Below, in pieces: positions 12,227 through 49,867 of a DNA stretch of 52,392 nt (within the stretch, counting starts at the first letter, position 1; each line of letters opens with the position of its first letter). The notes beneath the pieces were generated by a model that saw only the letters and a program-made list of their open reading frames with translations, was not told the DNA's origin and ran no database searches. The position numbers and the translations under genes are program-made. Source of the stretch: a virus; IMG/VR virus record IMGVR_UViG_3300045988_103014, positions 141,780-194,171 of that record; one strand, written 5' to 3'.

Positions 12227-12261
12227 ATGTACATACTCCTTTCTCACTTTTTTTTATTTGC

Positions 12262-14220: not shown

Positions 14221-15213
14221 TTAACCGAACAAAGCATCATCAGATGCGTTGTGAACAGTCTGAGTACGGAACAAGTCTTGTGAACCAGCCTCTTCAATAA
14301 TCTGAATAGCTGCAAGAACTTTCTTACTATGGTCAAATCTTGTGTAATCAGGGAACGCATCCATTGTGAAAGTGAATGTTGAAGGGTCTCCTGAAGAAGC
14401 CATAGTGAATGTGAAGTTAGACTGAATCTTGCAGTTAGGAATGATGAACTCTGCAGGCATATCTACACCGTTCTGGTCACGGAATAAAGTAGAAGCCTCA
14501 AGGTAGTAGTTACCACCGAACTTATCTGCAGTGATTTCAATCTGCTGTGCGTTTGACTTACGCTCAGTGTAGTAATCAACGATTACAGAGTCGAAGTTGT
14601 TCTTGCTGAAGAAAGTAGCAAGATTGTAATTGTCAGTCTCATCCTCTGGAGTGTTGTAGTTATCATGCATCTTAACGGTGATAATGTAAGCTCCGTCAGT
14701 TGCAGAAATTTCCTCATGTACAGGAATGAATGGCTCAGAAATGATTTCGCCGTCCTTACAGAACATAACGTAAGCAAAATCCTCACCAGCGTCAGCAGGA
14801 AGATAAGGCTTATTAGAAAGCTTAATCTTGTAAACTGCATCAGCAGCTGCATCTGCAGTACCCTCTACATCTACATCTCCCTTATCAATAGTCTCTGTAA
14901 TATGCTGCTTAATAGTCTTGCCAGCTGTAGCTTCGATAAGACCAGCACCAGATAGAATCATGAAACCTTCTGCGGAAATAAGAGCGTCTTCCATAGTGAA
15001 AGTTACAGTACGCTCACCTTCCCAAGCAACCAAACGTGCGTTACCGCGACCACCCTGTGCATAAACAGTAGTAGCTGCACCTTCCATACTTGAAGTCTTC
15101 AATGTATCGAAATAGATAACTGGCTCGTTCTTGTAGAAGACTTTGTTACCAATCTTAGTTGCTGCTTTAGCCTTAAGAACTACGTCACAAATCTCACGAA
15201 CACCAAATTTCAT
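14221..15213 (-). CDS. major tail (tube) protein candidate
   Basis: 330-aa beta-rich ORF directly upstream (in the transcription sense) of chaperone/TMP genes. It is followed by a strong rho-independent terminator (14162-14197), as expected for an abundant structural protein. Confidence 0.45.
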   Translation of the reverse strand: MKFGVREICDVVLKAKAATKIGNKVFYKNEPVIYFDTLKTSSMEGAATTVYAQGGRGNARLVAWEGERTVTFTMEDALISAEGFMILSGAGLIEATAGKTIKQHITETIDKGDVDVEGTADAAADAVYKIKLSNKPYLPADAGEDFAYVMFCKDGEIISEPFIPVHEEISATDGAYIITVKMHDNYNTPEDETDNYNLATFFSKNNFDSVIVDYYTERKSNAQQIEITADKFGGNYYLEASTLFRDQNGVDMPAEFIIPNCKIQSNFTFTMASSGDPSTFTFTMDAFPDYTRFDHSKKVLAAIQIIEEAGSQDLFRTQTVHNASDDALFG

Positions 15214-30087: not shown

Positions 30088-30888
30088 ATGAGACCAGAGG
30101 ATATTAAAGTACCAATGATATTAAAAGATATTAAAGAATTTACTGCTCAATGGAAAGCTTGTATGAAAGACTATATTGAGCGAATGGAAAAGAAGCCTGG
30201 GCTTGCAATCATTCAAGTCGGCGACGTTGAGGCCTCAAACCGATACGTCCGCAACAAGATTAAAGACTGTGAAGAAGTTGGAATTAAAACTCAATTATTC
30301 AAATTTCCTGAAGACATTTCAGACGTGGCTTTAATCTCACAGTTAAATATGATTGAGGAGAATGATGATTTTACAGGAGTATTTATTCAACTACCCCTGC
30401 CACAACACCTGCAAGGTATTGAAAAACTAATTGACCCCGCAAAAGATGTTGATGGTTTTACTCCAGATTCTGGATATACACCTTGCACACCTCTTGGTAT
30501 AGTCAAGTATTTAGACTATTGTGGTTTTAACTTGGACGGTAAAAATGTTCTTGTTATTGGCCGCAGTGATATCGTAGGTAAGCCAATGGCTCGTCTACTA
30601 TTAGATAGAAATGCAACAGTGACAGTTGCTCATAGCCATACAAAAAATCTTGACGCATTTATTTACACAGCAGATTTAATTGTATGTGCAGTTGGAAAAG
30701 CAAACTTTTTAAGCTGTGAAACAATCTATGTACCAGTTATTGATGTTGGCATCAATTTTGATGAAAATGGTAAATTAGTTGGTGATTGTTATAAAACTGA
30801 AAATCGAGATGTTACGCCGGTTCCCGGCGGTGTTGGACTACTCACCCGCTGTGCATTGCTTCACAATTTAGTAACTGGTATTTCATAA
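30088..30888 (+). CDS. folD: bifunctional 5,10-methylene-tetrahydrofolate dehydrogenase / cyclohydrolase (FolD) homologue
   Basis: 266 aa, collinear with bacterial FolD. Conserved YVRNKxKxCEEVG (catalytic Lys region), LPLPxHL, DVDGF, PCTPxGI, VIGRSxIVGKPMAxLL, ATVTxxHSxTKNL, DVGIN and PVPGGVG segments. Confidence 0.85.
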   Translation: MRPEDIKVPMILKDIKEFTAQWKACMKDYIERMEKKPGLAIIQVGDVEASNRYVRNKIKDCEEVGIKTQLFKFPEDISDVALISQLNMIEENDDFTGVFIQLPLPQHLQGIEKLIDPAKDVDGFTPDSGYTPCTPLGIVKYLDYCGFNLDGKNVLVIGRSDIVGKPMARLLLDRNATVTVAHSHTKNLDAFIYTADLIVCAVGKANFLSCETIYVPVIDVGINFDENGKLVGDCYKTENRDVTPVPGGVGLLTRCALLHNLVTGIS

Positions 30889-30904
30889 TAAGGAGGAATA
30901 GAAA

Positions 30905-31165
30905 ATGTTAAGACCAGAAAACGCAACTAGAAAGATTGACTCTCTTGGAAGAGTAACACTTCCTAAGGGAATGAGAGATAGAATGTTTATTGCCGACACA
31001 GATGAACTTGAGTTCTTTACAATGATGGCTGATGGAAGAGAATATATCTGTATGGCAAAAGTTAGCTCGGTAGACCCTAAGTATCTTGCAGCTCGCTCAG
31101 TACTTGAAGAGATGGGGGTTGAAATTCCGGAGAAGCTGGAAGCCGCATGTAATGGAGGTGAATAA
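30905..31165 (+). CDS. AbrB/MazE/SpoVT-type swapped-hairpin DNA-binding protein
   Basis: N-terminus RKIDSLGRVTLPKGMRDRMFIADTDELEFF matches the AbrB N-domain signature (VDELGRVVIPxELR...). RBS AAGGAGG. Confidence 0.65.
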   Translation: MLRPENATRKIDSLGRVTLPKGMRDRMFIADTDELEFFTMMADGREYICMAKVSSVDPKYLAARSVLEEMGVEIPEKLEAACNGGE

Positions 31166-31494
31166 TGGTACAAATGGATTCATTTACAATTAACCATTCA
31201 TGTGATACATGTATTCACTCAGAGGTTTGTCAGTATAAAACATATTTTAATGATATCGCCAGTCAGATTGAGGGAAAAGTTGATAATGTGTGTATGCCAG
31301 AAATTTTCAAAGTAAATATGGAATGCACAGCATGGGCAATGAAGTATTCAGTCCTTGCAAAAGATTGGGATGCTAAAGGTATCTTAACCACTACTGGACT
31401 ATATACTGGAGATAGTTTATATACTGTAAACCCAGTGACAACACTATGCGACACAAGTAAAGGAGAACCTAAACCACATGAGAAGAATTTATAA
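31165..31494 (+). CDS. hypothetical Cys-rich protein (109 aa)
   Basis: Coupled start (TAATG); multiple Cys/His residues. Confidence 0.4.
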   Translation: MVQMDSFTINHSCDTCIHSEVCQYKTYFNDIASQIEGKVDNVCMPEIFKVNMECTAWAMKYSVLAKDWDAKGILTTTGLYTGDSLYTVNPVTTLCDTSKGEPKPHEKNL

Positions 31495-31903
31495 ATATCA
31501 GTTGATGGAAGCAGAATGCATCACTGCAAGAATTGAAAAATTTTTACATCTTGATTATCAAGATGGTATTCCTACCGTATGGGCTATTATGAATGACGAC
31601 TATCCTGAAGTTACTTATAAAATTGTGGTTCAGGGAACTGGTTGGGATATGCCTAATGACTTAGATGAGTCAACCTATATTGGAACTCTCCAAGCAGGAT
31701 TTTTTGTATGGCATTATTTTGCAGTACCAGACCGCAGAGTCCGTGAATATCAAAAAGTTTATAATGATTATTCAAAAGACATCTATGATAATTTCAAAGA
31801 TAAAGATTTTGAAATTGATATGGAACAGGCAATTCAGTACAATGAAGCATTTCAGAATGTGCTTCGTCAGATTATAGAAAAGTCGCCCGTAGCAATGCAC
31901 TAA
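31478..31903 (+). CDS. hypothetical protein (141 aa)
   Basis: Complete ORF in the operon; no motif assigned. Confidence 0.4.
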   Translation: MRRIYKYQLMEAECITARIEKFLHLDYQDGIPTVWAIMNDDYPEVTYKIVVQGTGWDMPNDLDESTYIGTLQAGFFVWHYFAVPDRRVREYQKVYNDYSKDIYDNFKDKDFEIDMEQAIQYNEAFQNVLRQIIEKSPVAMH

Positions 31904-32196
31904 TGGACATTGCAATTATCTGTTCTCCAGGATTGGAGAATATTGAACTGATTGATGACACCATTATGAAGTGGATGTCAGATAATGATATTTGGTTGGT
32001 AGGTGTAGTTTGTGGTAAACCCACTTCCGCGGGCGCAAAGTGGGCAAGCCGCAGAGGCGCACCAATAAAGTATTCTGGTGTTTGGGAGGCAGATTTTATA
32101 TTTGCCTTCGACACCGGAGTTGACTATTCAGTAAAAAATTTCGTTTCGCAAATGAAGAATAGGGGTAAGCATGGTAGATATATACAAGTTAGTTGA
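31903..32196 (+). CDS. degenerate SLOG/DprA-like Rossmann-fold protein (paralogue of 32828..33172)
   Basis: VGVVCGKPTSAGAKWASRRGAPIKYSGVWE aligns with IVCGGARGADSLGEKWGIANGVPIKYFFPKWE of the downstream paralogue. Confidence 0.4.
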   Translation: MDIAIICSPGLENIELIDDTIMKWMSDNDIWLVGVVCGKPTSAGAKWASRRGAPIKYSGVWEADFIFAFDTGVDYSVKNFVSQMKNRGKHGRYIQVS

Positions 32197-32419
32197 GCCG
32201 CAATATGGCGATATGATTATTGTTGAAGTCGACATGAGTGATGATTCGTGGCTAGATATCGAGACTGTTCAAAAGATACATCAACATATCCAACGACAGT
32301 TCCCTTTTAATTCCGTTATCACAGTCCCTAATTATTTCTCATTAGATTTATATTCAAAAGAAGAGGCTATCAAATATTTGGAAGACCTTCTTCAAAAGAT
32401 TAGAGAGGAGAAGTTATAA
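32171..32419 (+). CDS. hypothetical protein (82 aa)
   Basis: Complete ORF with RBS AGGGGTAAG. Confidence 0.35.
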   Translation: MVDIYKLVEPQYGDMIIVEVDMSDDSWLDIETVQKIHQHIQRQFPFNSVITVPNYFSLDLYSKEEAIKYLEDLLQKIREEKL

Positions 32420-32640
32420 TGCAGGTTACAGAAAAGAAATACAACCAGACTACTACTTTTGGTAAGCTGAAGCCAGGTGACACATTCAAATATGCAAATA
32501 CAGTTTGGATGAAAACCGAGAATGTAAGTAATATGCAGACAAAGATTAACGCAGTTGTTTTGACTACTGGAACTTTTGACCAGTATTTCAAAGACACAGA
32601 TACTGTTGGTGTAATCACAGGTAGCTTTGTGGAGGGTTAA
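32419..32640 (+). CDS. hypothetical protein (73 aa)
   Basis: Coupled start (TAATG). Confidence 0.35.
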   Translation: MQVTEKKYNQTTTFGKLKPGDTFKYANTVWMKTENVSNMQTKINAVVLTTGTFDQYFKDTDTVGVITGSFVEG

Positions 32641-32643
32641 TTT

Positions 32644-32919
32644 ATGGAACCGGTGTCAGTAATACGAAAAACAGAATATCAAGTTGGCGATTTTAATCGA
32701 GAGTCTATTATTCATAACTTTTATTGCGGACATTGTCAGGCAAAAGTTGAAAAGTATCACAAGTATTGCTGGCACTGTGGTTACATGTTGCCAGATAACT
32801 TTGTAAAGAAATTAGGGGGCGATACTTGTGAGATACATAATAGCGGGGAGCCGCAATTTCTCGGATTACTCACTTATGGACGCGACGCTCAAATCATTGA
32901 ACATATCGAGCAACGATGA
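32644..32919 (+). CDS. zinc-ribbon protein (CGHC...CWHCG)
   Basis: Four-Cys motif. The 3' 92 nt overlap the next gene in another frame; the true C-terminus is uncertain. Confidence 0.4.
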   Translation: MEPVSVIRKTEYQVGDFNRESIIHNFYCGHCQAKVEKYHKYCWHCGYMLPDNFVKKLGGDTCEIHNSGEPQFLGLLTYGRDAQIIEHIEQR

Positions 32920-33172
32920 AATAGTTTGTGGAGGAGCCCGTGGTGCGGATTCACTTGGTGAAAAATGGGGTATAGCAAATGGAGTCCCTATAAAATATTT
33001 TTTCCCGAAATGGGAAGAATTTGGCAAAGCCGCAGGACACATCCGAAATGCTGAAATGGCTGAGTACGGCGACTTCTTGGTCGCGTTCTGGGATGGGCAG
33101 AGTCGGGGAACCGCAAACATGATACAAGCAATGAAAAGGAAGAAGAAGCATGGAAAAGTCGTCCGTTATTAA
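32828..33172 (+). CDS. SLOG-superfamily (DprA/LOG-like; DUF2493-like) protein
   Basis: GTG start with GGGGG Shine-Dalgarno. Motif IIAGSRNF...VCGGARGADSLGEKWG typical of the Rossmannoid SLOG/DprA nucleotide-binding fold. Confidence 0.55.
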   Translation: MRYIIAGSRNFSDYSLMDATLKSLNISSNDEIVCGGARGADSLGEKWGIANGVPIKYFFPKWEEFGKAAGHIRNAEMAEYGDFLVAFWDGQSRGTANMIQAMKRKKKHGKVVRY

Positions 33173-33461
33173 ATTTATTGAAGGCATGACAAAAGGACAC
33201 GAAGCCGCAATGGATGAAGTGTTCGCGCATGGTTATTGCTACTGGTTTGCCAAAATCCTCGAACTTCGGTTTGATGGCGAAATGTGGTATTTGCCAGTAG
33301 AAAACCATTGGGTTACCAAAATTGGTGACCACTTTTTTGATGTTAATGGAGAATATGAGGTTGGAGATGGTATCATAGGTACCTGGCACGGAGTCGCGCA
33401 AGAAGACCCTCTATTGGCAGAACGATTGAGAAGAGATTGTATTCTAAAAGAGGAGGTATAG
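33150..33461 (+). CDS. hypothetical protein (103 aa)
   Basis: Complete ORF; overlaps the upstream gene by 23 nt. Confidence 0.35.
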   Translation: MEKSSVIKFIEGMTKGHEAAMDEVFAHGYCYWFAKILELRFDGEMWYLPVENHWVTKIGDHFFDVNGEYEVGDGIIGTWHGVAQEDPLLAERLRRDCILKEEV

Positions 33462-33465
33462 TGAA

Positions 33466-34101
33466 ATGATTTATACCAGTTATTTCGCGCAAATGCGCAA
33501 TTTTCCCGTAAACTTCATACCAATAGCAATCTGCGGCGGCATACCAAAATGGTACAATGGTTTATGGTATAAGAAGGTCGCACCAAAGTGGGCTTTCTTT
33601 TCGCAATGGAAACAAACGCATGATGATGAATATTATGTAGAACATTTTAATAGAGAAGTATTGCAACCGCACGAGCCGCAAAGATTTTTGAACGAGATTC
33701 AGCTTTTGGTTCCAGAAGAGATTAGAGCTGGTATGGCAGAACCAGTTTGGCAAAGTAAGAATGTTCATGTCGTGTTGCTTTGCTATGAAAAGCGAGGTGA
33801 TTTCTGCCACCGACATTTAGTTAGTAAATGGGTCAACGACTGGGCGGGCAAAGACCTTATCCAGGAGTGGATTCCAGAAGCAGTGGAAGAAAGGGTTATC
33901 ACTGAAGATGAGTATCAGAAAGCAAAACAGTCCTTTGCCAATGGCGGCGAAGATGGCACAATTGAGCAAAGCGAACGAGATACGGAAATACCAGAAGACA
34001 GTGCAAGCACAGATTGCGGCGGTCACCAAGTCGATTCTCACAGCGACGAAACTGGGGGAGTTTTCGACGGGAGCATTGGATTTGTTGCCGGAGACAATTA
34101 A
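33466..34101 (+). CDS. DUF488 family protein with acidic C-terminal extension
   Basis: MIYTSYFAQMRNFP...PIAICGGIPKWYNG...VAPK...VVLLCYEKRGDFCHRHLVSKWV matches the DUF488 pattern (IYTSYFA ... LLCYEK...CHRRLVAEWL). The C-terminal ~85 aa are low-complexity and overlapped by a +1-frame ORF. Confidence 0.65.
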   Translation: MIYTSYFAQMRNFPVNFIPIAICGGIPKWYNGLWYKKVAPKWAFFSQWKQTHDDEYYVEHFNREVLQPHEPQRFLNEIQLLVPEEIRAGMAEPVWQSKNVHVVLLCYEKRGDFCHRHLVSKWVNDWAGKDLIQEWIPEAVEERVITEDEYQKAKQSFANGGEDGTIEQSERDTEIPEDSASTDCGGHQVDSHSDETGGVFDGSIGFVAGDN

Positions 34102-36069: not shown

Positions 36070-36151
36070 AGCTATTGGCAGTCTGCACAAAAATCTCCGG
36101 CGAATTTTGTGCAAAATTACCTGTTGACATTATCCCGAAATGGTGCTATAA
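36070..36151 (+). promoter_or_regulatory. operator-promoter module 1 (drives Pnk-like kinase gene)
   Basis: TGCACAAA (36084) - 14 nt - TTTTGTGCA (36105), then TTGACA 36124, spacer with ATCCCGAAAT, TATAAT 36146. Confidence 0.55.
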
Positions 36152-36183
36152 TAATTATAGTAAATGAGAGAGAGGTAATGACT

Positions 36184-36615
36184 ATGAGTACAATGTTCGT
36201 AACAATCGGAATGCCTGGATGTGGTAAGAGCACTTGGGCACAGACTAAAAACGCAAGAGTGATTTCATCTGACGCAATTCGCGAAGAGATGTTCGGAGAT
36301 GAAGCAATTCAGGGCGACCCTCGCAAGGTATTCGCAGAGGTTTACAAGAGACTTGCACAGGCTCTCATTGATGATGTGGATGTAATCTTTGACGCAACCA
36401 ACCTCGACTACAAGAGAGCAAAAGCAATCGAAATGTGCTACGAAATGGATTGCGAATGTGTTGCCGTTTACTTTGATGTAGACGCACAGACTTGCATTGA
36501 GAGACAGAACATGCGTTCTCGCAAAGTTCCTGCGTCAGTTATTCGCAGAATGTCTCATCAGTTAGTTGTTCCTTACCTCGAAGAGGGTTGGACACGAATT
36601 GAAAAAGTTTCGTAA
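36184..36615 (+). CDS. polynucleotide 5'-kinase (T4 Pnk kinase-domain homologue, P-loop NTPase)
   Basis: MSTMFVTIGMPGCGKSTWA... (Walker A), DATNLDYKR and VPASVIRRM segments align with the T4 Pnk kinase domain (LTIGCPGSGKSTWA ... ISDTNLNPERR ... VPIDVLRSM). The second ATG, 8 nt after GAGAGG, is the start. Confidence 0.8.
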   Translation: MSTMFVTIGMPGCGKSTWAQTKNARVISSDAIREEMFGDEAIQGDPRKVFAEVYKRLAQALIDDVDVIFDATNLDYKRAKAIEMCYEMDCECVAVYFDVDAQTCIERQNMRSRKVPASVIRRMSHQLVVPYLEEGWTRIEKVS

Positions 36616-36622
36616 AAGGGGG

Positions 36623-36651
36623 TTGACAAACACCCCTTTCGGTGCTATAAT
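36623..36651 (+). promoter_or_regulatory. hairpin-embedded promoter for 36684 gene
   Basis: TTGACA lies in the loop of GGGGG...CCCC; 17-nt spacer; TATAAT. Positions were confirmed by the TTG-start ORF in the track. Confidence 0.6.
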
Positions 36652-36683
36652 TAACTTATCAAATGAAAGAGAGGAAATGAAAA

Positions 36684-37022
36684 ATGTTTACAATAATTGC
36701 TTTAATAATCGCAATGATAATGAATGGAGTACCAACAGAGAACCTCAATGAAGTCAAGGTGTACAGTGACACAATGTGCGTTGTTGATGTAAACTACGCA
36801 GAGGACATTGTAACAATCGCAGACTTTAATGGATTTGAATTTCAGTTCGAGGGTTGTGAGGATTGGCTTGAGGGGGACCTTTGCTCTGTGACAATGTGCG
36901 ACAATGGAACAGAAAAAATCTTTGATGATGTAATCCTTGGCACAAGATACAGTGGTTGGGTTGAACAATGGGGTTTTGACATCGAAAGCAATGAGTATTT
37001 ATACTATTTTGATTTTGATTAA
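36684..37022 (+). CDS. hypothetical protein with N-terminal hydrophobic segment (112 aa)
   Basis: MFTIIALIIAMIMNG... signal/TM-like N-terminus; own hairpin-embedded promoter at 36623-36651. Confidence 0.45.
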   Translation: MFTIIALIIAMIMNGVPTENLNEVKVYSDTMCVVDVNYAEDIVTIADFNGFEFQFEGCEDWLEGDLCSVTMCDNGTEKIFDDVILGTRYSGWVEQWGFDIESNEYLYYFDFD

Positions 37023-37040
37023 AAAATTCAAAAAAAGGGG

Positions 37041-37069
37041 TTGACAAGTTCAACCCCATCTGTTATAAT
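37041..37069 (+). promoter_or_regulatory. hairpin-embedded promoter for 2H phosphoesterase gene
   Basis: GGGGTTGACAAGTTCAACCCC (8-bp stem) - TATAAT. Confidence 0.55.
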
Positions 37070-37099
37070 TAAATCATCAAAGAGAGAGAGGTAGATAAA

Positions 37100-37474
37100 A
37101 TGATTTACACCGCATTATTTATTAACGAAGAAGATAGAAGAACATCAAGACTTGATAAGACAATCGAGTTTCAGCACATCACACATCAGTTCAGACCAAA
37201 GACAGTAGATGAACGCTTATTCGGTCAGCAAGCAACTCTCAAGGTTGTTGGCTATGGTATCAACGAAGAGAATGAGGGCTACCTTGTAGAAATCGTTGAG
37301 GCTTCCGAGGAATTGAGAGAGGCTTTTGCAAGTGTTGAAGTACCTCACATCACAATCGGCATTTCCAACAGTGGCAAGGCTGTCAATACAAGATACCTTG
37401 AGTTTGAGGAAATTGAGCCTTTTGAAATCGTGGCAACTTACGGAGGTTTCTGCGGCGACCACGTAAAATTCTAA
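37100..37474 (+). CDS. 2H phosphoesterase superfamily protein (LigT / cyclic phosphodiesterase / Acb1-like), compact 124 aa
   Basis: Two H-x-T-x motifs (FQHITHQF near residue 26; VPHITIGIS near residue 82). N-terminal MIYTALFI resembles the LigT beta1 strand (RLFIAI). A VVGYGINEENEGYLVEIVEASEELREAF stretch separates the two motifs as in 2H enzymes. Confidence 0.5.
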   Translation: MIYTALFINEEDRRTSRLDKTIEFQHITHQFRPKTVDERLFGQQATLKVVGYGINEENEGYLVEIVEASEELREAFASVEVPHITIGISNSGKAVNTRYLEFEEIEPFEIVATYGGFCGDHVKF

Positions 37475-37493
37475 AAAAAGTTTCAAAAAGGGG

Positions 37494-37522
37494 TTGACAA
37501 ATGCCCCTTTTGGAGCTATAAT
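37494..37522 (+). promoter_or_regulatory. hairpin-embedded promoter for 37557 gene
   Basis: AAAAGGGGTTGACAAATGCCCCTTTT; 17-nt spacer; TATAAT. Confidence 0.55.
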
Positions 37523-37556
37523 AATTATAGAAAGAAACGAAAGAGAGGTAATTACA

Positions 37557-37736
37557 ATGAACGAAATGAGAGAGAACTTACTTGATAGAATGATTAGAAT
37601 TTACGGATTTGAACACGAGGTAGTAATCGAGTTCGCAAGAATGTGCGAGAGCGACGCATACACCGACAAAGACCTTGAGGTGCTTGTGAAGTGCCACGAG
37701 GAAAACCCAGTTGGGTTTGATGAGGACGAGGAGTAA
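37557..37736 (+). CDS. small acidic protein (59 aa)
   Basis: MNEMRENLLDRMIRIYGFEHEVVIEFARMCESDAYTDKDLEVLVKCHEENPVGFDEDEE; own promoter at 37494-37522. Confidence 0.45.
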   Translation: MNEMRENLLDRMIRIYGFEHEVVIEFARMCESDAYTDKDLEVLVKCHEENPVGFDEDEE

Positions 37737-37815
37737 TCCTTGTCCTTTTCATTTGGCGGCGCGCTTTCGGCCCTGGCGCGCCGAATTTATATTATACCAT
37801 ACCACCCGGGATTTT

Positions 37816-37910
37816 GTCAAGAGAAAATTTGCACAAATTTTTGGCGTTCAATTTCCCGAAATTTGTGCACATTTACCTATTGACAAATGGCTCAAGCTTT
37901 GCTATACTAT
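37816..37910 (+). promoter_or_regulatory. operator-promoter module 2 (drives a ~110-nt non-coding leader)
   Basis: GTCAAGAG ... TGCACAAAT (37830) - 22 nt incl. TTTCCCGAA - ATTTGTGCA (37861) ... CCTATTGACA (-35 37880) - 17 - TATACT. Confidence 0.55.
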
Positions 37911-37916
37911 AATTAC

Positions 37917-38030
37917 AGAAAGGGGAAGTGAGGCTTGACCGTTAAGCGTGTGCAGTTGGTATTTGACTTGACAAAGTCGGGTGCTGATTAGCGAGGGTTC
38001 AACGGAACCTCGAACCCTTTGAAAAAAAAT
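37917..38030 (+). ncRNA. candidate non-coding transcript from operator-promoter module 2
   Basis: No ORF or RBS for ~110 nt; ends in hairpin AGGGTTC...GAACCCT followed by an A-run and the next promoter. Confidence 0.25.
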
Positions 38031-38040
38031 AAAAAAAGTG

Positions 38041-38069
38041 TTGACAAAGGTTGTCAGCTATGCTATAAT
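38041..38069 (+). promoter_or_regulatory. promoter for 38100 gene
   Basis: TTGACA-17-TATAAT preceded by an A-tract. Confidence 0.55.
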
Positions 38070-38099
38070 TAAATCATCAAAGAGAGAGAGGTACACAAA

Positions 38100-38552
38100 A
38101 TGTATAGAATTGATAGAATGAGAAGAGATTACGAAAAGTTTACAGGTGCAGAGGGATACGCAATCGGTTTCCACATTGGCGAAGATGTTTACTGTGCAAT
38201 GCTTGACAGAATACCAAGAAGATTTACAAGAGTACAGAAAGAATGTTCTTCTTGTGGTGGTGGCTACGGACTTTACATCAATGTAAAGAATAAGAAAGCA
38301 AAAGCCGAACTGATGAAGAAAGCCGTTAAGGTTGGAACACTTGCAGACCTTGAGGGAGATTATAACAGAGGTGTAATGTTTGAAAAACTCGTTTACGAAA
38401 TGAATGGACAGACATTCAGAGGTAAAGACTCCGTAAGATTTACAGAGGGTGGCGACATTGTAATTGACGGAAAGGAAATTCAAGTCAAGTATGAACACGC
38501 AAGAATTTGTTATGATAGCACATTAAAAAAATTGAAAAAAGGGGTTGCATAA
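38100..38552 (+). CDS. hypothetical protein with CSSCGGG motif (150 aa)
   Basis: Own promoter at 38041-38069; RBS GAGAGAGAGG. Confidence 0.45.
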   Translation: MYRIDRMRRDYEKFTGAEGYAIGFHIGEDVYCAMLDRIPRRFTRVQKECSSCGGGYGLYINVKNKKAKAELMKKAVKVGTLADLEGDYNRGVMFEKLVYEMNGQTFRGKDSVRFTEGGDIVIDGKEIQVKYEHARICYDSTLKKLKKGVA

Positions 38553-38573
38553 TTGCTCCCCTTGTGCTATAAT
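38545..38573 (+). promoter_or_regulatory. hairpin-embedded promoter for 38605 gene
   Basis: GGGGTTGCATAATTGCTCCCC; TGcTATAAT. Confidence 0.5.
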
Positions 38574-38604
38574 AAGTATAGAAAATGAGAGAGAGGTAAT
38601 GATA

Positions 38605-38772
38605 ATGGCATTTGTAGAAATTTCCAAAAGAACAAAGAAAGAGCAGAAAGCCTACTACGCAAGTATGCGAAATGTGAACGGGTTCAACACCGGCACACGC
38701 ACAATGAAAACACCAAAAAATCCTACTCGTGCAATGCAGAAAGATGCTTGGCGAAAAGGTAAAGAAATTTAG
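38605..38772 (+). CDS. small basic protein (55 aa)
   Basis: MAFVEISKRTKKEQKAYYASMRNVNGFNTGTRTMKTPKNPTRAMQKDAWRKGKEI; ATG 8 nt after GAGAGG. Confidence 0.4.
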   Translation: MAFVEISKRTKKEQKAYYASMRNVNGFNTGTRTMKTPKNPTRAMQKDAWRKGKEI

Positions 38773-38781
38773 AAAAAAGTG

Positions 38782-38810
38782 TTGACAAACACCTCAAGCT
38801 GTGGTATTAT
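38782..38810 (+). promoter_or_regulatory. promoter for HAD phosphatase gene
   Basis: TTGACA-17-TGgTATTAT. Confidence 0.55.
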
Positions 38811-38837
38811 AATTATAGAAAGAGAGGTAAACAGATT

Positions 38838-39269
38838 ATGATGAAAGCAATTAACTTTGACATGGACGGAACATTAGCAAACTTCTACGGAGTAGAAAAT
38901 TGGTTGGAATACTTAATGGCAGAAGATGTAACACCTTACGAGGTAGCAAGACCACTCCTCAATCTTCAGGCACTTGCAAGAGTTCTCAACAGATTGCAGA
39001 GAGAGGGTTGGGAAATCAACATCATTTCTTGGTTAAGTAGAAACGGAAGTGATGACTACAACGCAAGAGTGACAGAAACCAAAAAGGCTTGGTTAGAAAA
39101 ACACCTTGCAAGTGTTCACTTCGACAACATCACAATAGTAAAGTACGGAACACCTAAACACACTTTAGGAAACGGAATACTTTTTGATGATGAAGAGCCA
39201 AACAGAAACGCTTGGGGCGTTGGTGCTTACGATGTGCAGAACATCATCGAAATTCTGAAAAATCTCTAA
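38838..39269 (+). CDS. HAD-family polynucleotide 3'-phosphatase (T4 Pnk phosphatase-domain homologue)
   Basis: INFDMDGTLA (HAD motif I DxDGT), ISWLSRNGS, and ILFDDEEPNRNAW (motif IV DD) are collinear with the T4 Pnk phosphatase domain (VIFDVDGTLA ... VVSGR ... LAIDDRTQVVEMW). Confidence 0.7.
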   Translation: MMKAINFDMDGTLANFYGVENWLEYLMAEDVTPYEVARPLLNLQALARVLNRLQREGWEINIISWLSRNGSDDYNARVTETKKAWLEKHLASVHFDNITIVKYGTPKHTLGNGILFDDEEPNRNAWGVGAYDVQNIIEILKNL

Positions 39270-39517: not shown

Positions 39518-39607
39518 ACTCTGCAAGCATTTTTTTGCCCAAGTTTGGGCGCCGCGCGCACGAACGATGCGCGCGGAATTTTCATTATACCATACCCCAC
39601 AGCTTTT

Positions 39608-39700
39608 GTCAAGAGAAAAGTTGCACAAATTTTCAATCGGTGCTATTCCCGAAATTTGTGCATTTTGCCAGTAGACAAAGCTCTGTTGGAGTGTTATAAT
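39608..39700 (+). promoter_or_regulatory. operator-promoter module 3
   Basis: GTCAAGAG ... TGCACAAAT (39622) - 22 nt incl. TTCCCGAA - ATTTGTGCA (39653), then TAGACA-17-TATAAT. Confidence 0.55.
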
Positions 39701-40198: not shown

Positions 40199-40227
40199 AA
40201 TGTATCAAATGAAGAGAGGTAATGTGT

Positions 40228-40629
40228 ATGAAGATTTATTTGGCAAGTCCATTTTTTAATCAGTTAGAAAGAGCAAATGTTGTAAAGGTCGCAGAGAGAT
40301 TGCGTGCCGAGGGTCACGAGGTCTATGTTCCAATGGAACACGAGATTGAAAATGCGTGGGATTTACCTAACAATGAATGGTCACGCAGAGTATTCAAAGA
40401 CGATGTTGACGCAATTCGCAAGGCTGACAAGGTTGTTGCAATCACTTATGGAATGACTGATGACGCAGGAACTTCGTGGGAGATTGGCTTTGCTTACGGC
40501 ATTGACAAAACTGTTGAGGTTATTTCTGTAAATCAGACAACTTATTCTTTAATGGTTTATCAGAGTTGTGCAGAGGTTTCAGACCTTGACGGAAACCCAT
40601 TAAGAAAAAAAGAAATTTTACAAAGTTAG
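40228..40629 (+). CDS. nucleoside 2-deoxyribosyltransferase-fold protein (NDT / Rcl-DNPH1-like)
   Basis: MKIYLASPFF (compare IYFGAGWF) and DDAGTSWEIGFAYGIDKTV (compare EDVGLGMELGYALSQGKYV) are the two signature segments of the Nuc_deoxyrib_tr fold. Confidence 0.6.
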   Translation: MKIYLASPFFNQLERANVVKVAERLRAEGHEVYVPMEHEIENAWDLPNNEWSRRVFKDDVDAIRKADKVVAITYGMTDDAGTSWEIGFAYGIDKTVEVISVNQTTYSLMVYQSCAEVSDLDGNPLRKKEILQS

Positions 40630-41564: not shown

Positions 41565-41648
41565 GTCAATAGGTAGTCTGCACAAATTTTGCCACCAAAC
41601 TTTGTGCATTTTGTACAGTTGACATTTTCCCGTATCTATGGTATTATA
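41565..41648 (+). promoter_or_regulatory. operator-promoter module 4 (drives DEDDh exonuclease 1)
   Basis: GTCAATAGG ... TGCACAAAT (41579) - 13 - TTTGTGCA (41601), then TTGACA (41619, confirmed by track) - TTTTCCCGTATCTATGG - TATTAT. Confidence 0.6.
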
Positions 41649-41679: not shown

Positions 41680-42342
41680 ATGAACAAGATTATGTATTGT
41701 ACTTTAGACACAGAAACAGTTGGTGGCGCAAGCAATCCAACAGGCACATACAATTATGGTGGAAAAATCCACGACAGAAACGGAAATGTTTTCGCAAGTT
41801 TTTCGCTTTTGGTTTCAAGTCACTATGAGGACATCAAGAACGATGACTATGCAAAAAAGAATTTTCCACTCTATGAGAGATACATCAACGAGGGAAAAGT
41901 CACAGTAGTTCCAACAGAGGAAATGGCACTTGACATTATCCGTCAGTTGTGCAGAGCCTACAATGTAAAGTATTTAATGGCTTACAATTCAGGCTTTGAC
42001 TTTGTAAAAACTAATTGCGCCGAGTTGCTTGACGAGTTCGAGTTCATTGACATTTACTTAATGGCATTACAGACAATTACTCACATCAAGAAGTATGCGA
42101 AGTTCTGCCGAGAGAATGGCTTTGTTTCAAGAAGTGGTAAGACTTGCGCAACTTCTGCCGAGAGTATGTTTGCATACCTCACAGACAATGCAGACTACAA
42201 AGAAGAACACACTGCCTTTGAAGATGCTTGCATTGAAATGGAAATCTTCCTTGCTTGCTTACGCACTCACAAGAAATTCACAAAGAATGTTCATCAGTGG
42301 GATTGCCGAGAGGGAAAAATTTTTCCAAAATGGGTTGACTAA
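41680..42342 (+). CDS. DEDDh 3'-5' exonuclease (DnaQ/oligoribonuclease-like), paralogue 1
   Basis: Exo I LDTETVG, Exo II YNSGFDF, Exo III HTAFEDACIEMEIF. Start is the second ATG, 10 nt after GAGAGG. Confidence 0.65.
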   Translation: MNKIMYCTLDTETVGGASNPTGTYNYGGKIHDRNGNVFASFSLLVSSHYEDIKNDDYAKKNFPLYERYINEGKVTVVPTEEMALDIIRQLCRAYNVKYLMAYNSGFDFVKTNCAELLDEFEFIDIYLMALQTITHIKKYAKFCRENGFVSRSGKTCATSAESMFAYLTDNADYKEEHTAFEDACIEMEIFLACLRTHKKFTKNVHQWDCREGKIFPKWVD

Positions 42343-42700: not shown

Positions 42701-42795
42701 GTCAAGAGGAAAATTGCACAAATTTTCAAATAATTTTTTTTCCCAATTTGTACAATCTGCCTATTGATTTTTATTAAAAAATTTGGTATTATAAT
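42701..42795 (+). promoter_or_regulatory. operator-promoter module 5 (degenerate right arm)
   Basis: GTCAAGAGG ... TGCACAAAT (42715) ... TTTTTCCCAATTTGTACA ... CCTATTGATT (-35) - 17 - TGgTATTAT. Confidence 0.45.
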
Positions 42796-43033: not shown

Positions 43034-43438
43034 ATGGTGGTAATTATGGAAAAGATGACTAATGTTAAGGCAATCGAGTATGTTCTTGCAAACGCAACTC
43101 TCCCTACTGATGTAAAGGAGAAGTTAGAGAAGATGAAGGCACAGTTTGTGAAGAAGAACTCTGCCGACAGAAAGCCTACTGCAAATCAGGTTGAGAACGC
43201 AGAGTTTAAGGTGGCAATCCTTGACTACCTTGCAACTGTTGAGTCTGCGACTATCTCCGACTTAATGAAGTCCGTTCCTGCTCTTGCAGAACTCTCAAAT
43301 CAGAGAGTATCGGCAATCGTTAGACAGTTAAAGGACTCTGGCGAGGTTGTTAGAGAGGAAATCAAGAGAAAGGCTTACTTCTCTCTTGCCGAGGACTCTG
43401 CCGACCTTGACGAGTCCGAGGACTCTGACGAGGAGTAA
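43034..43438 (+). CDS. winged-helix DNA-binding protein, paralogue A1 of a triplicated family
   Basis: TISDLMKSVPALAELSNQRVSAIVRQLKDSGEVVREEIKRKAYF reads as helix-turn-helix plus wing; acidic C-tail. About 70% identical to 44536..44928 and 48749..49132. The true start may be the ATG at 43046. Confidence 0.55.
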   Translation: MVVIMEKMTNVKAIEYVLANATLPTDVKEKLEKMKAQFVKKNSADRKPTANQVENAEFKVAILDYLATVESATISDLMKSVPALAELSNQRVSAIVRQLKDSGEVVREEIKRKAYFSLAEDSADLDESEDSDEE

Positions 43439-43900: not shown

Positions 43901-44002
43901 TGCACAAATAAAATTCTCTGTTTTGCACAAAGTTCCAGCCGGAATTTTGTGCAATTTTTTTTATCCAAAAGGCTTGACAAAAGCGGCGACCTGTGCTATA
44001 AT
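43901..44002 (+). promoter_or_regulatory. operator-promoter module 6 (two left half-sites)
   Basis: TGCACAAAT (43901) + TGCACAAAG (43924) - 12 nt - TTTTGTGCA (43945), then TTGACA-16-TATAAT. The transcript immediately enters a GC hairpin. Confidence 0.5.
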
Positions 44003-44062
44003 GGCGCGCCGCTGTCGGCAGCAGCGGCGTGAATTTCCAGTATACCACACTCTCAGCAATTT

Positions 44063-44156
44063 GTCAAGCAAAAACTCCAGGGCAATCTGCACAAATCTTT
44101 TTCCCGAAATTTGTGCAACATTGCCTATTGCATTTTGGGGGTGGGTGTGCTATACT
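44063..44156 (+). promoter_or_regulatory. operator-promoter module 7
   Basis: GTCAAG ... TGCACAAAT (44088) - CTTTTTCCCGAA - ATTTGTGCA (44109) ... CCTATTGCAT (-35) - 17 - TATACT. Confidence 0.5.
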
Positions 44157-44535: not shown

Positions 44536-44928
44536 ATGGTGGTAAACATGGAAAAGATGACAAACGTAAAGGCAATTGATTTCGTACTTGGCAACTGTGA
44601 GGTTCCTGCTGATGTAAAGGAAAAGTTGGAGAAGATGAAGGCTCAGTTCATCAAGAAGTCTAGTGCGGAGCGTAAGCCTACCGCAAATCAGACTGAGAAC
44701 GCAAGCCTCAAGGTGGCTATCCTCGACGCAATGGAAGAGGGTAAGGGTTACACCATCACCGACTTGATGAAGGTTGTGCCTGAACTTGCAGACCTCTCTA
44801 ATCAGAGGGTAAGTGCAATCGTTCGTCAGATGAAGGACGAGGGTACTGTAACTCGTGAGGAGATTAAGCGTAAGGCTTACTTCACAAAGGCAACTGACGA
44901 GGTTGCCGACCTTGAGGACGAGGAGTAA
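44536..44928 (+). CDS. winged-helix DNA-binding protein, paralogue A2
   Basis: Same architecture as A1; preceded by two tandem consensus promoters in AT-rich DNA. Confidence 0.55.
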   Translation: MVVNMEKMTNVKAIDFVLGNCEVPADVKEKLEKMKAQFIKKSSAERKPTANQTENASLKVAILDAMEEGKGYTITDLMKVVPELADLSNQRVSAIVRQMKDEGTVTREEIKRKAYFTKATDEVADLEDEE

Positions 44929-45026: not shown

Positions 45027-45109
45027 GTCAATAGGCAGTTTCAACAAATTTTCGGCGTAAAATTTGTGCAATTTTACCTATTGCAATTTTCCCGTAATCG
45101 TGGTATTAT
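45027..45109 (+). promoter_or_regulatory. operator-promoter module 8
   Basis: GTCAATAGGCAG - TTCAACAAAT (degenerate left) - 13 - TTTGTGCA (45063) ... CCTATTGCAA (-35) - TTTTCCCGTAATCGTGG - TATTAT. Confidence 0.5.
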
Positions 45110-46664: not shown

Positions 46665-46747
46665 GTCAAGAGTAATACTGCACAAATTTTTCGTGCAAAA
46701 TTTGTGCAAAATGACCACTTGACTTTTTTCCCGTAATCGGCTATAAT
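46665..46747 (+). promoter_or_regulatory. operator-promoter module 9
   Basis: GTCAAGAG ... TGCACAAAT (46679) - 13 - TTTGTGCA (46701), then TTGACT - TTTTTCCCGTAATCGGC - TATAAT. Confidence 0.55.
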
Positions 46748-47579: not shown

Positions 47580-48230
47580 TTGGATTTTGGAATAATGATT
47601 GATACAGAAACTACAAACGGTTTTGATGACCCTATGTTTTATGACTGTGGGTGGCAAGTGATAGACACTCTTGGCAATGTTTACAGAGAACGCTCGTTCG
47701 TAAATGCCGACATTTTTTGTGGGGAAAAGGACTTGATGAAAGAAGCCTTTTTTGCCGACAAAATTCCTCAGTATTGGGAAGAAATCAAAGACGGCTCGCG
47801 AATGTTGGCAAGTACAAACGGAATACGCAAGGCACTTGCCGAAGATGTGCGAATGTTTGGTTGCTCGTTCATTTGTGCCCACAATGCACGATTTGACTAC
47901 AAGGCACTTGCGAAAACGCAAAGATACATCACAAAGTCAAAATACAGATACTTTGTTCCTTTTGGTCTTGTGTGGTGGGATACCTTGAAAATGGCTCGTC
48001 AAGTCTTGGGAAATGATGAACAGTACCGAGAGTTTTGCGAACTCAACGACTACATTTGCAAAAATGGACAGTTGAGAATGACAGCCGAAATCGTTTACAG
48101 ATTTATTTCTGACAATAACGATTTTGTCGAGGAACACACCGGCTTGGCTGATGTGGACATTGAAAGACAGATTTTGGCTTATTGTCTTGCAAAAATGCCA
48201 GACCTTGACCGAGAACTGTGGGGAAACTAA
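47580..48230 (+). CDS. DEDDh 3'-5' exonuclease, paralogue 2
   Basis: IDTETTNG (Exo I), HNARFDY (Exo II), HTGLADVDIERQIL (Exo III). TTG start 9 nt after GAGAGG is supported by alignment with paralogue 1. Confidence 0.6.
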   Translation: MDFGIMIDTETTNGFDDPMFYDCGWQVIDTLGNVYRERSFVNADIFCGEKDLMKEAFFADKIPQYWEEIKDGSRMLASTNGIRKALAEDVRMFGCSFICAHNARFDYKALAKTQRYITKSKYRYFVPFGLVWWDTLKMARQVLGNDEQYREFCELNDYICKNGQLRMTAEIVYRFISDNNDFVEEHTGLADVDIERQILAYCLAKMPDLDRELWGN

Positions 48231-48347: not shown

Positions 48348-48433
48348 GTCAATAGGAAAATTGCACAAATTTTAACCCCATTTTTTATCCCAAAATTGTT
48401 ACTTTTGCCTATTGACACAAAAAGTCAATAGGC
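48348..48433 (+). promoter_or_regulatory. operator module 11 with perfect 10-bp outer palindrome
   Basis: GTCAATAGG ... TGCACAAAT (48362) ... GCCTATTGAC-ACAAAAA-GTCAATAGGC (48407-48433). Confidence 0.45.
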
Positions 48434-48748: not shown

Positions 48749-49132
48749 ATGGTGGTAATTATGGAAAAAATGACTAATGTAAAGGCTCTTGATGTTGTTC
48801 TTAATGGTGGCGAAATCACTGCCGAGGTTCGTGAGAAACTTCAGAAAATGCGTGAGCAGTTTGTGAAGAAAAATTCTGCCGAGAGAAAGCCTACGGCAAA
48901 TCAGACCGAGAATGCCTCTCTCAAGGTTGCCATTGTGAACGCAATGGAAATCGGTCGCAAGTACACTATTACGGACTTGATGAAAGCCGTACCTGAACTT
49001 GCCGACCTCTCAAATCAGAGAGTGTCTGCCATTGTCCGTCAGATGAAAGACGAGGGAACGGTTGTTCGTACCGAGGAAAAGCGTAAGGCTTATTTCGAGG
49101 TTGCCGTTACTGACGAGGGTGAGGACGAGTAA
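48749..49132 (+). CDS. winged-helix DNA-binding protein, paralogue A3
   Basis: ITDLMKAVPELADLSNQRVSAIVRQMKDEGTVVRTEEKRKAYF; three stacked promoters upstream. Confidence 0.55.
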   Translation: MVVIMEKMTNVKALDVVLNGGEITAEVREKLQKMREQFVKKNSAERKPTANQTENASLKVAIVNAMEIGRKYTITDLMKAVPELADLSNQRVSAIVRQMKDEGTVVRTEEKRKAYFEVAVTDEGEDE

Positions 49133-49782: not shown

Positions 49783-49867
49783 GTCAATAGGCAACATTCA
49801 CAAATTTTTCTCTCAAAATTTGTGCAATTTGACGGGTTGACTTTTTTCCCAAAATGGTGTATTATAG
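49783..49867 (+). promoter_or_regulatory. operator-promoter module 14
   Basis: GTCAATAGG ... TTCACAAAT - 15 - AATTTGTGCA (49820), then TTGACT - TTTTTCCCAAAATGGTGT - TATTAT. Confidence 0.5.

Follow-up and report, generated by a model that had tools for sequence, protein, structure and literature searches.

Phage RNA end-healing and the presence of 2H enzymes in phages are both established ideas, and a gut phage that encodes a polynucleotide kinase, a miniature 2H phosphoesterase and a HAD phosphatase within 3.1 kb raises the question of which of these enzymes belong together. The three genes lie on a 52,392-nt stretch of IMG/VR record IMGVR_UViG_3300045988_103014 (positions 141,780 to 194,171; hereafter the window), which is part of a ~194 kb gut-metagenome phage contig (ena:ERZ27229741:k119_387515) and whose genes are seen again on many other gut contigs. 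All three open reading frames (ORFs) were confirmed, and independent gene calls on the parent contig agree with them (143, 124 and 143 amino acids (aa), respectively; Table 1). A preliminary description of this DNA had taken kinase and HAD phosphatase for the two halves of a split T4 Pnk that would, together with the 2H enzyme, heal RNA ends. Comparison with related loci leads to a different arrangement, in which kinase and 2H enzyme form a two-protein RNA end-healing pair of the KIN-CPD type of Trl1 and CNPase rather than of the T4 Pnkp type, and the HAD phosphatase stands apart. We give this reading as a whole just under an even chance of being correct.

The polynucleotide kinase

The first gene product matches Pfam AAA_33 (E = 8.6e-23) and PHROG 505 'polynucleotide kinase' (1.4e-20), and its nearest NCBIfam model is bacter_Pnkp (TIGR04075, 7e-16). 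Among PDB sequences the kinase domain of C. thermocellum Pnkp (CthPnkp) is the best match (3.5e-10), followed at lower significance by PSTK, the L-seryl-tRNA(Sec) kinase (1.3e-5), T4 Pnk (1e-3) and Pnkp1 (5.6e-3). That the best solved relatives (CthPnkp, PSTK, T4 Pnk) are polynucleotide or tRNA kinases speaks for a role in healing. Pairwise BLASTP aligned the protein with the whole kinase domain of T4 Pnk (PseT, residues 1-143) at 27% identity (E = 2e-8). Walker A (GxxxxGK[ST]) is present as GMPGCGKST at residues 9-17, the pattern TIG-PG-GKSTWA is common to T4 Pnk and the window kinase, and the segments VISSDAIR and ERQNMRSRKV align to VISSDFCR and ERNKNRTDRQV of CthPnkp. The Asp and Arg of the D-x-x-R motif presumably contact the 5'-OH end; their roles, like that of the arginine-rich lid, are assumed from general knowledge of the family. 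The earlier identification of a T4 polynucleotide kinase domain homologue was thus correct at the family level, and the assignment as a Pnk-family polynucleotide 5'-kinase appears real as judged from its sequence.

Among annotated phage proteins the nearest homologues (35-40% identity) are proteins of ~325-340 aa from Bacillus phages Izhevsk and PK-3, in which the similarity lies in the N-terminal half. Their C-terminal halves carry HD motifs, and their genes overlap an upstream gene for an RnlA-family RNA ligase. Bacterial HD-Pnk is comparable to these kinase-HD proteins. They share with the window genes the logic of a kinase combined with a 3'-end phosphoesterase, but their phosphoesterase is a fused HD domain and their ligase gene overlaps, whereas in the window the 2H enzyme is unfused and no ligase lies nearby in the region screened.

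The miniature 2H phosphoesterase

The second gene product has no match in Pfam (E up to 1), PHROGs, NCBIfam or PADLOC. Neither the protein alone nor a profile of its family matched a PDB sequence. Its fold was revealed by structure prediction only, and all structural statements made here refer to predicted models. The model adopts the 2H fold with CNPase or CPD as closest structural neighbour, ahead of LigT, Acb1 and AKAP18, and the motifs H26-I-T28 and H83-I-T85 are invariant in 18 homologues down to 39% identity. Both results bear out the initial recognition of a 124-aa 2H-fold enzyme. The best viral structural matches are giant-virus proteins of 765-771 aa, one of them named 'RNA ligase', and from their size and this name we read them as Trl1-like.

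An Acb1-type enzyme had been offered as an alternative identity. Like Acb1 (T4 57B, anti-CBASS), the mini-2H protein is a small stand-alone phage 2H enzyme with two HxT motifs and early expression. No specific similarity to Acb1 was found in sequence or profile, and membership of that family was rejected on profile comparison and structural ranking.

An exhaustive profile search recovered 674 cluster representatives of the mini-2H family (E <= 1e-3), mostly stand-alone proteins of 125-150 aa. INPHARED phage records gave no match to the 3.4-kb region (megablast) or to the 2H protein (tblastn). In IMG/VR, scanning for exact copies of the 2H gene and searching for loci by means of the kinase both came back empty. 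One family member is fused to a nucleotidyltransferase-like region (weak NCBIfam match). We could not find a description of this compact family, which lacks a family model and combines a CNPase-like predicted fold with kinase fusions and the CorA-like partners discussed below.

Association of kinase and 2H genes

Kinase and 2H genes associate through fusion, adjacency and co-variation on a conserved gene backbone. Three of the 150 best 2H-family representatives are kinase-2H fusions, and both domain orders occur: the kinase comes first in P0220 (kinase 4-138, 2H 175-302) and in P0172, and the 2H domain comes first in P0222 (2H 106-239, kinase 315-449). On a 332-kb phage contig (L020) the kinase gene (9534-10004) and the 2H gene (starting at 9995) overlap by 10 nt, on a related 394-kb contig (L019) the two genes are 2 kb apart, and in the window the kinase gene lies 485 bp upstream of the 2H gene.

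The HAD gene shows no such linkage. Not one of 79 IMG/VR loci with a close HAD homologue, covered up to 6 kb on either side, contains a homologue of kinase or 2H. In eight syntenic relatives the order of the 112-aa, 59-aa, 150-aa, HAD and 220-aa genes is kept while kinase and 2H are both absent, and an SPbeta-like contig (L014) has the HAD gene alone; one related phage (L009) has all three in the same order as the window. A kinase gene is found within 2.5 kb in 4 of 11 viral 2H loci versus 0 of 79 HAD loci, which gives a hypergeometric probability of ~1e-4 if the loci are independent and is weaker in practice, as the four loci represent two or three lineages and the samples are small and partly non-independent. 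Because the HAD gene does not accompany kinase or 2H in these relatives, the functional pair would be kinase and 2H, although their association is not obligate.

The HAD phosphatase

The HAD product carries DxDxT motifs I-IV with D8, D10, T12, S64, K107 and D117-D118 invariant; the residues of these motifs are generic to all HAD phosphatases. It reaches 33.6 bits against Pfam NT5C (cut-off 24.8, E = 4.7e-8) and stays at 14.8 bits, under the cut-off of 27.6, against HAD_PNKP. Likewise, PHROG 2643 '5'-3' deoxyribonucleotidase' is matched at 1.2e-9 and PHROG 415 'polynucleotide kinase' at 8e-4. Alignment with T4 PseT by hhalign covers 68 columns around motifs I-II only (T4 residues 159-233, 56% probability, E = 1e-4), and the closest fold of the predicted model is an NT5C-type structure. 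At 143 aa the protein is short compared with NT5C family members (cdN, mdN, Staphylococcus 3bwv), and its match covers only positions 68-139 of the 180 in the profile. A profile of close homologues matched no PDB sequence. The family comprises 4112 proteins at E <= 1e-3, all stand-alone and many ~70% identical, and in INPHARED the HAD protein matches three unannotated gut phage records only.

The HAD protein, encoded by a conserved backbone gene, therefore most likely serves phage nucleotide metabolism as a separate NT5C-like (deoxy)nucleotidase, and it probably stands outside the kinase/2H pair. The matching Pnk-type 3'-phosphatase of the preliminary description finds no support in the sub-threshold HAD_PNKP score or in the NT5C-like sequence and predicted fold. 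With it, the 'split T4 Pnk' had to be given up on family thresholds, on the 79-locus comparison (0 of 79 with kinase or 2H) and on synteny, given the eight relatives that keep the HAD gene on its own.

About 5.5 kb past the window end a 263-aa lambda-phosphatase/ApaH-like metallophosphoesterase is encoded (L016:16008-16799). Bacterial Pnkp phosphatase belongs to the same superfamily, and this protein was considered as a Pnkp-like phosphatase and rejected, as it has no specific similarity to Pnkp.

The search for an RNA ligase

On the plus strand from ~29.4 kb to the window end, and in the 10 kb beyond, no RnlA-like, T4 Rnl1-like, RtcB or Tpt1 gene was found. The window, the 10 kb beyond it and related loci were searched by tblastn, without a match, with T4 RnlA, the Izhevsk and PK-3 RnlA proteins, a PK-3 'RNA ligase family' fragment and a DNA ligase as queries. 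Precomputed Pfam tables were also used, 40 early ORFs were scanned against Pfam, and the larger ORFs without an assignment were compared with PHROG. That no RNA ligase is visible in the window, as noted before, holds for this screened part; the minus-strand structural genes at 1-29 kb were left out of the family-library scans.

A proposed two-protein healing pair

Families and predicted folds, the conserved catalytic residues and the linkage of kinase and 2H genes are observed, whereas RNA as the substrate, the regiochemistry with which the ring is opened, the trigger and the final sealing are inferred in the following course. Strong sigma-A-type promoters, one for each gene, would drive early synthesis of kinase and 2H enzyme. 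Host RNases that act without metal ions, among them anticodon nucleases, HEPN effectors and toxins, would leave 2',3'-cyclic-phosphate and 5'-OH ends. The 2H enzyme would open the cyclic phosphate, to a 2'-phosphate if it acts like CNPase and Trl1-CPD, and phosphorylation of the 5'-OH would fall to the kinase. A host ligase, or one encoded at another site, could then seal the ends; at the least, they would no longer be cyclic-phosphate and 5'-OH ends.

This scheme resembles the KIN-CPD part of the fungal and plant tRNA ligase Trl1 and vertebrate CNPase, both of which join a PNK-like domain to a 2H domain, whereas here the two are small, separate and separately transcribed proteins. At 124 aa the mini-2H protein is about half the size of its counterpart (CNPase domain chain, ~216 aa) and shows no detectable resemblance in sequence to CNPase or Trl1. 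Unlike in Trl1, no ligase domain or ligase gene was seen in the region screened. With T4 PseT and Rnl1 the window genes share a homologous kinase domain (27% identity over residues 1-143), their nature as phage early genes and the presumed purpose of countering host RNA-cleaving defences. In T4, however, the 3' end is healed by the fused DxDxT HAD domain of PseT, whereas the window HAD is NT5C-like and its gene shows no linkage to the kinase gene in relatives. Of the candidate 3'-end enzymes, the 2H protein is the one that co-varies with the kinase here, and no Rnl1 homologue was found in the region screened.

Several observations weigh against such a pair. Seven viral 2H loci have no kinase gene in flanks of up to 10 kb, and the stand-alone kinase homologues in L121 and L122 have no 2H gene in the available flanks; for another, in L123, the downstream flank is too short to judge the presence of a 2H gene. 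In the window itself the two genes are separate transcription units with the 112-aa gene between them, and no ligase was found in the ~32 kb screened, with ~130 kb of the phage lying outside the screen. In addition, most cellular members of the 2H family are linked to CorA-like membrane proteins and not to kinases, and a phage protein, P0189 (L120:8001-8663), is a mini-2H domain fused to Tad8, a type II Thoeris inhibitor (Pfam, 3e-19). The CorA-like linkage and the Tad8 fusion both point to a role in signalling or anti-defence.

CorA-like partners of the 2H family

In gut Clostridia (Faecalimonas, Mediterraneibacter, Lachnospiraceae, Oscillospiraceae and Ruminococcus; loci L105-L114 and L011), the 2H gene directly follows a gene for a ~440-aa membrane protein, or is fused with it, at 10 of 11 genome loci. 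The 150 best 2H-family representatives include at least 11 such fusions, with the 2H domain at either end (P0153, P0212 and P0249 belong to this module). The ~440-aa protein has C-terminal membrane helices and matches PADLOC models of CorA-like effectors (E 1e-12 to 3e-14, partial matches), with no match in Pfam, NCBIfam or PDB sequences. These pairs sit among housekeeping genes (PGK, TIM, GidA, RapZ and MurB). Within 6 kb no cas gene, cyclase or other defence family appears among the 25 of 59 Pfam families displayed, and neither a type III CRISPR system nor another signal-generating gene was seen at that distance. The window copy has no CorA-like gene in the region screened. A full-text literature search for CorA together with '2H phosphoesterase' gave a single, unrelated plant paper, no account of a CorA-like/2H module was found in the literature searched, and an attempt to separate kinase-linked from CorA-linked 2H domains by a neighbour-joining tree failed, as the tree was star-like.

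Two further loci deserve mention. The contig of P0189 (L120) resembles the phage group of L007 and L020, with a Radical_SAM gene upstream of the 2H gene. In a Candidatus Saccharibacteria locus (L115:5307-9342) the 2H gene and an HD-domain gene are divergent neighbours, and 2 kb from the 2H gene lies a CorA-like ORF that carries a GMN motif at its C-terminus.

CorA effectors of CRISPR systems occur in obligate pairing or fusion with a signal-degrading NrN, DEDD or SAM-AMP lyase, the SAM-AMP-degrading partner is required for CorA immunity, and phage-encoded SAM-AMP lyases have been proposed as anti-CRISPRs (PMC10600005, PMC12255297). The cellular mini-2H proteins, adjacent or fused in both orders to a CorA-like protein, resemble this effector-degrader pairing (PMC10600005, PMC12255297). 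They differ from these partner enzymes in fold, and the window copy occurs in a phage in which no CorA gene was seen.

Alternative explanations

By analogy with these systems, the mini-2H protein could be a phage copy of a CorA-partner enzyme that destroys the activating nucleotide so that the membrane effector stays silent; the ligand could be SAM-AMP-like or a small molecule bearing a cyclic phosphate, and the kinase would be incidental or process a product. Such an eraser of host signals would fit the Clostridia loci (in 10 of 11 the membrane protein directly precedes the 2H or is fused with it), the fusions with either domain first (at least 11 among the 150 best representatives), the CorA-like PADLOC matches (1e-12 to 3e-14) and the joining of 2H to the Thoeris inhibitor Tad8 in a phage contig. 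The window 2H is ~48% identical to a CorA-linked Faecalimonas copy, and its gene is surrounded by other small early genes that each have their own promoter, as is typical of places where anti-defence genes are found. The dependence of CorA effectors on a SAM-AMP-degrading partner, together with the phage lyases proposed as anti-CRISPRs, offers a precedent (PMC10600005, PMC12255297). Yet the pairs lie in housekeeping surroundings with no defence family among the 25 of 59 displayed and may not be defence modules, the CorA-like label comes from partial PADLOC matches only, with Pfam, NCBIfam and PDB empty, and the repeated kinase fusions and adjacency would be left unexplained. We regard this explanation as rather doubtful. 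Somewhat less probable still, and unlikely in our view, is its extension to the whole family, according to which the mini-2H proteins would be a new class of partner enzyme for CorA-type effectors beside NrN, DEDD and SAM-AMP lyase. They would hydrolyse a channel-gating nucleotide ligand, perhaps one that bears or forms a 2',3'-cyclic phosphate, would have been captured by phages as an early counter-defence that is sometimes coupled to a Pnk-like kinase or to Tad8, and would at the same time be prokaryotic and viral relatives of the eukaryotic kinase-CPD arrangement of CNPase and Trl1.

The remaining two explanations assign the HAD phosphatase a part. In the first, the three enzymes would share one pathway, as a T4 Pnkp taken apart and extended by a cyclic phosphodiesterase, with the 2H opening the cyclic phosphate, the HAD stripping the 2'- or 3'-phosphate and the kinase acting on the 5'-OH. 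The proximity of all three genes within 3.1 kb, their identical order in L009, the complete catalytic residues of the HAD and its similarity to T4 Pnk (hhalign to residues 159-233, 1e-4; PHROG 415, 8e-4) agree with this, and stand-alone HAD phosphatases have been described in phage RNA repair (PMC7824862). It is improbable given that 0 of 79 HAD loci contain kinase or 2H, that eight syntenic relatives and L014 have the HAD without either, and that no kinase-2H fusion or adjacent pair brings a HAD along. Of the proposed healing set, the pairing of kinase with 2H thus stood, supported by fusions and adjacency, and the membership of the HAD did not. Equally small is the probability that we assign to RNA turnover and salvage. 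Here the kinase would turn 5'-OH fragments into 5'-monophosphate substrates for host 5'-exonucleases, much as T4 Pnk reportedly makes RegB-cut mRNAs into such substrates, and the 2H enzyme, the NT5C-like HAD and a deoxyribosyltransferase would feed 2',3'-cyclic nucleotides and nucleotides into the phage pool. CNPase-type enzymes also hydrolyse free 2',3'-cyclic nucleoside monophosphates, and by analogy the mini-2H protein could do so as well. This would agree with the absence of a ligase from the ~32 kb screened and with neighbours in nucleotide metabolism (the NT5C-like HAD, Nuc_deoxyrib_tr and FolD), as well as with nearby YAcAr SLOG and DUF488 genes, whose function may concern nucleotides or DNA modification. 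However, HAD and deoxyribosyltransferase do not co-vary with kinase or 2H, the closest annotated relatives of the kinase adjoin RNA ligases, and the CorA-like association of the family would find no explanation.

The healing pair and the CorA-like linkage might be reconciled if RNA fragments or nucleotides terminated by a cyclic phosphate act as danger signals, which is speculation on our part; a review of jumbo phages raises cyclic-phosphate-ended RNA or nucleotides as possible signals of this kind (PMC7824862).

Transcription of the early region

The window holds 34 perfect TTGACA-N16-18-TATAAT sites where 0.07 would be expected, all within 29389-51187 and about one per small gene, and many carry an extended TG. 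In the region of the three genes a perfect promoter precedes every gene, in agreement with the earlier claim of individual promoters; that of the kinase matches the consensus at 12 of 12 positions and has the TG extension. With its own promoter each gene forms a separate early transcription unit, and adjacency in the window can therefore not be read as an operon. The promoters belong to cassette families of 40-80 nt with a GAGAGG ribosome-binding site, in which a short GGGG...CCCC hairpin, bordered by runs of A and T, often holds the -35 box in its loop. From its sequence, this hairpin-promoter cassette may serve as terminator and promoter at once.

Just 5' of a subset of promoters, including that of the kinase, lies a palindrome, TGCACAAA ... 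TTTGTGCA (36083-36132, 37839-37888, 41578-41627 and 44087-44136; further copies at 45040-45089, 46678-46727 and 49796-49845, and also at 39608, 42701 and 48348). Its operator-like form suggests a DNA-binding regulator that would govern a sub-regulon of early genes. Related non-coding elements are repeated as well, with copies of the D16 hairpin at 39545-39607 and 44000-44062 and of the D12 palindrome at 39608-39677, 42701-42770 and 48348-48417. Perfect minus-strand consensus promoters in these modules (37820-37791, 39612-39584 and 42705-42676) each face a plus-strand promoter, and the modules could make small or antisense RNAs. Rfam and tRNA scans matched no Rfam family and no tRNA in the window.

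Neighbouring genes and the phage

Homologues of the 112-aa protein occur at 13 of the 79 HAD loci and in the syntenic relatives that lack kinase and 2H, so the gene is not specific to the pair. The 150-aa protein has no match in Pfam, PHROG, NCBIfam, PADLOC or PDB. Its homologue lies within 6 kb of the HAD gene at 36 of 79 loci, often directly upstream, which makes it a better candidate for a functional partner of the HAD than the kinase. The deoxyribosyltransferase gene directly follows the HAD gene in L009 and lies within 6 kb of it at 7 of 79 loci, a weak link that makes it a possible metabolic partner.

Table 1 Features of the region around the kinase, 2H and HAD genes (positions in the window).
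Feature	Position	Strand	Remarks
Kinase promoter with upstream operator-like palindrome TGCACAAA...TTTGTGCA	36083..36152	+	TTGACA-17-TATAAT at 36124-36152; repeat families D10/D11
Stand-alone Pnk-family polynucleotide 5'-OH kinase, 143 aa	36184..36615	+	P-loop GMPGCGKST, SSDAIR Asp/Arg motif, RQNMRSRK lid
112-aa protein, hydrophobic N-terminus, backbone gene	36684..37022	+	Promoter 36623-36651; no family match
Miniature 2H phosphoesterase, 124 aa, CNPase/Trl1-CPD-like predicted fold	37100..37474	+	H26-I-T28, H83-I-T85; promoter 37041-37069
59-aa acidic protein, backbone gene	37557..37736	+	Promoter 37494-37522
Non-coding module	37740..38040		GC-rich hairpin, minus-strand promoter 37820-37791, plus-strand promoter 37880-37908, operator-like palindrome
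150-aa protein, function not assigned	38100..38552	+	Commonest conserved HAD neighbour
Small basic protein, 55-57 aa	38599..38772	+	Gene calls
Stand-alone HAD phosphatase, NT5C-like (5'(3')-deoxyribonucleotidase-like), 143 aa	38838..39269	+	Promoter 38782-38810
Nucleoside 2-deoxyribosyltransferase-family protein	40222..40629	+	Pfam Nuc_deoxyrib_tr 2.4e-21

The minus strand from ~2.5 to 29.3 kb is filled with large ORFs, presumably virion genes, and the plus-strand array of small genes runs from 29.4 kb on. A YonG_N-domain protein encoded among the large ORFs suggests an SPbeta-like phage; the same block contains a single ORF of 3221 aa (2582-12247, minus strand).

The early region starts with a cluster at 30088-34101 that encodes a FolD-like methylene-tetrahydrofolate dehydrogenase/cyclohydrolase (30088-30888), a MazE-like protein, DUF7352, a YAcAr SLOG-family protein (probably 32876-33172, by sequence motifs), a YunG-like protein and DUF488-N3a (33466-34101). 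Its composition hints at nucleotide or DNA-base modification chemistry. A DUF488-like gene (14496-14879) also lies near the 2H and kinase genes of jumbo contig L019. Further downstream, a pair of paralogues of ~211-220 aa (41680-42342 and 47595-48230; PHROG 20187, function not annotated) shares an N-terminal D-T-E-T motif, and one of the two weakly matches a 'DNA polymerase exonuclease subunit' family (1.5e-6), so that they may be DEDD-type exonucleases. The product of 41680-42342 is kept at 62-67% identity in relatives. Three paralogues of ~130 aa (43034-43438, 44536-44928 and 48749-49132) start with M(V)(V)xMEKMTNVKA. Together with the sequences upstream of them, their genes are 72-81% identical in nucleotides (repeat families D6 and D14), and the first and the last are each trailed by another small gene.

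Implications

For annotation, the locus shows that a DxDxT HAD gene near a Pnk-like kinase does not necessarily encode a Pnk phosphatase. More broadly, the analysis defines a compact 2H phosphodiesterase family of ~674 clusters that has no Pfam, PHROG or NCBIfam model. In phages it recurs with Pnk-type kinases, in gut Clostridia with CorA-like membrane proteins. Should the pairing with kinases serve RNA end-healing, Firmicutes phages would use chemistry in the style of Trl1 and CNPase instead of that of T4 Pnkp, and the kinase-2H fusions would be candidates for prokaryotic relatives of the eukaryotic KIN-CPD. Should the pairing with CorA serve signalling, the family would be a new class among the ligand-degrading enzymes that CorA effectors, for reasons not yet explained, require as partners, and it would supply a candidate phage counter-measure.

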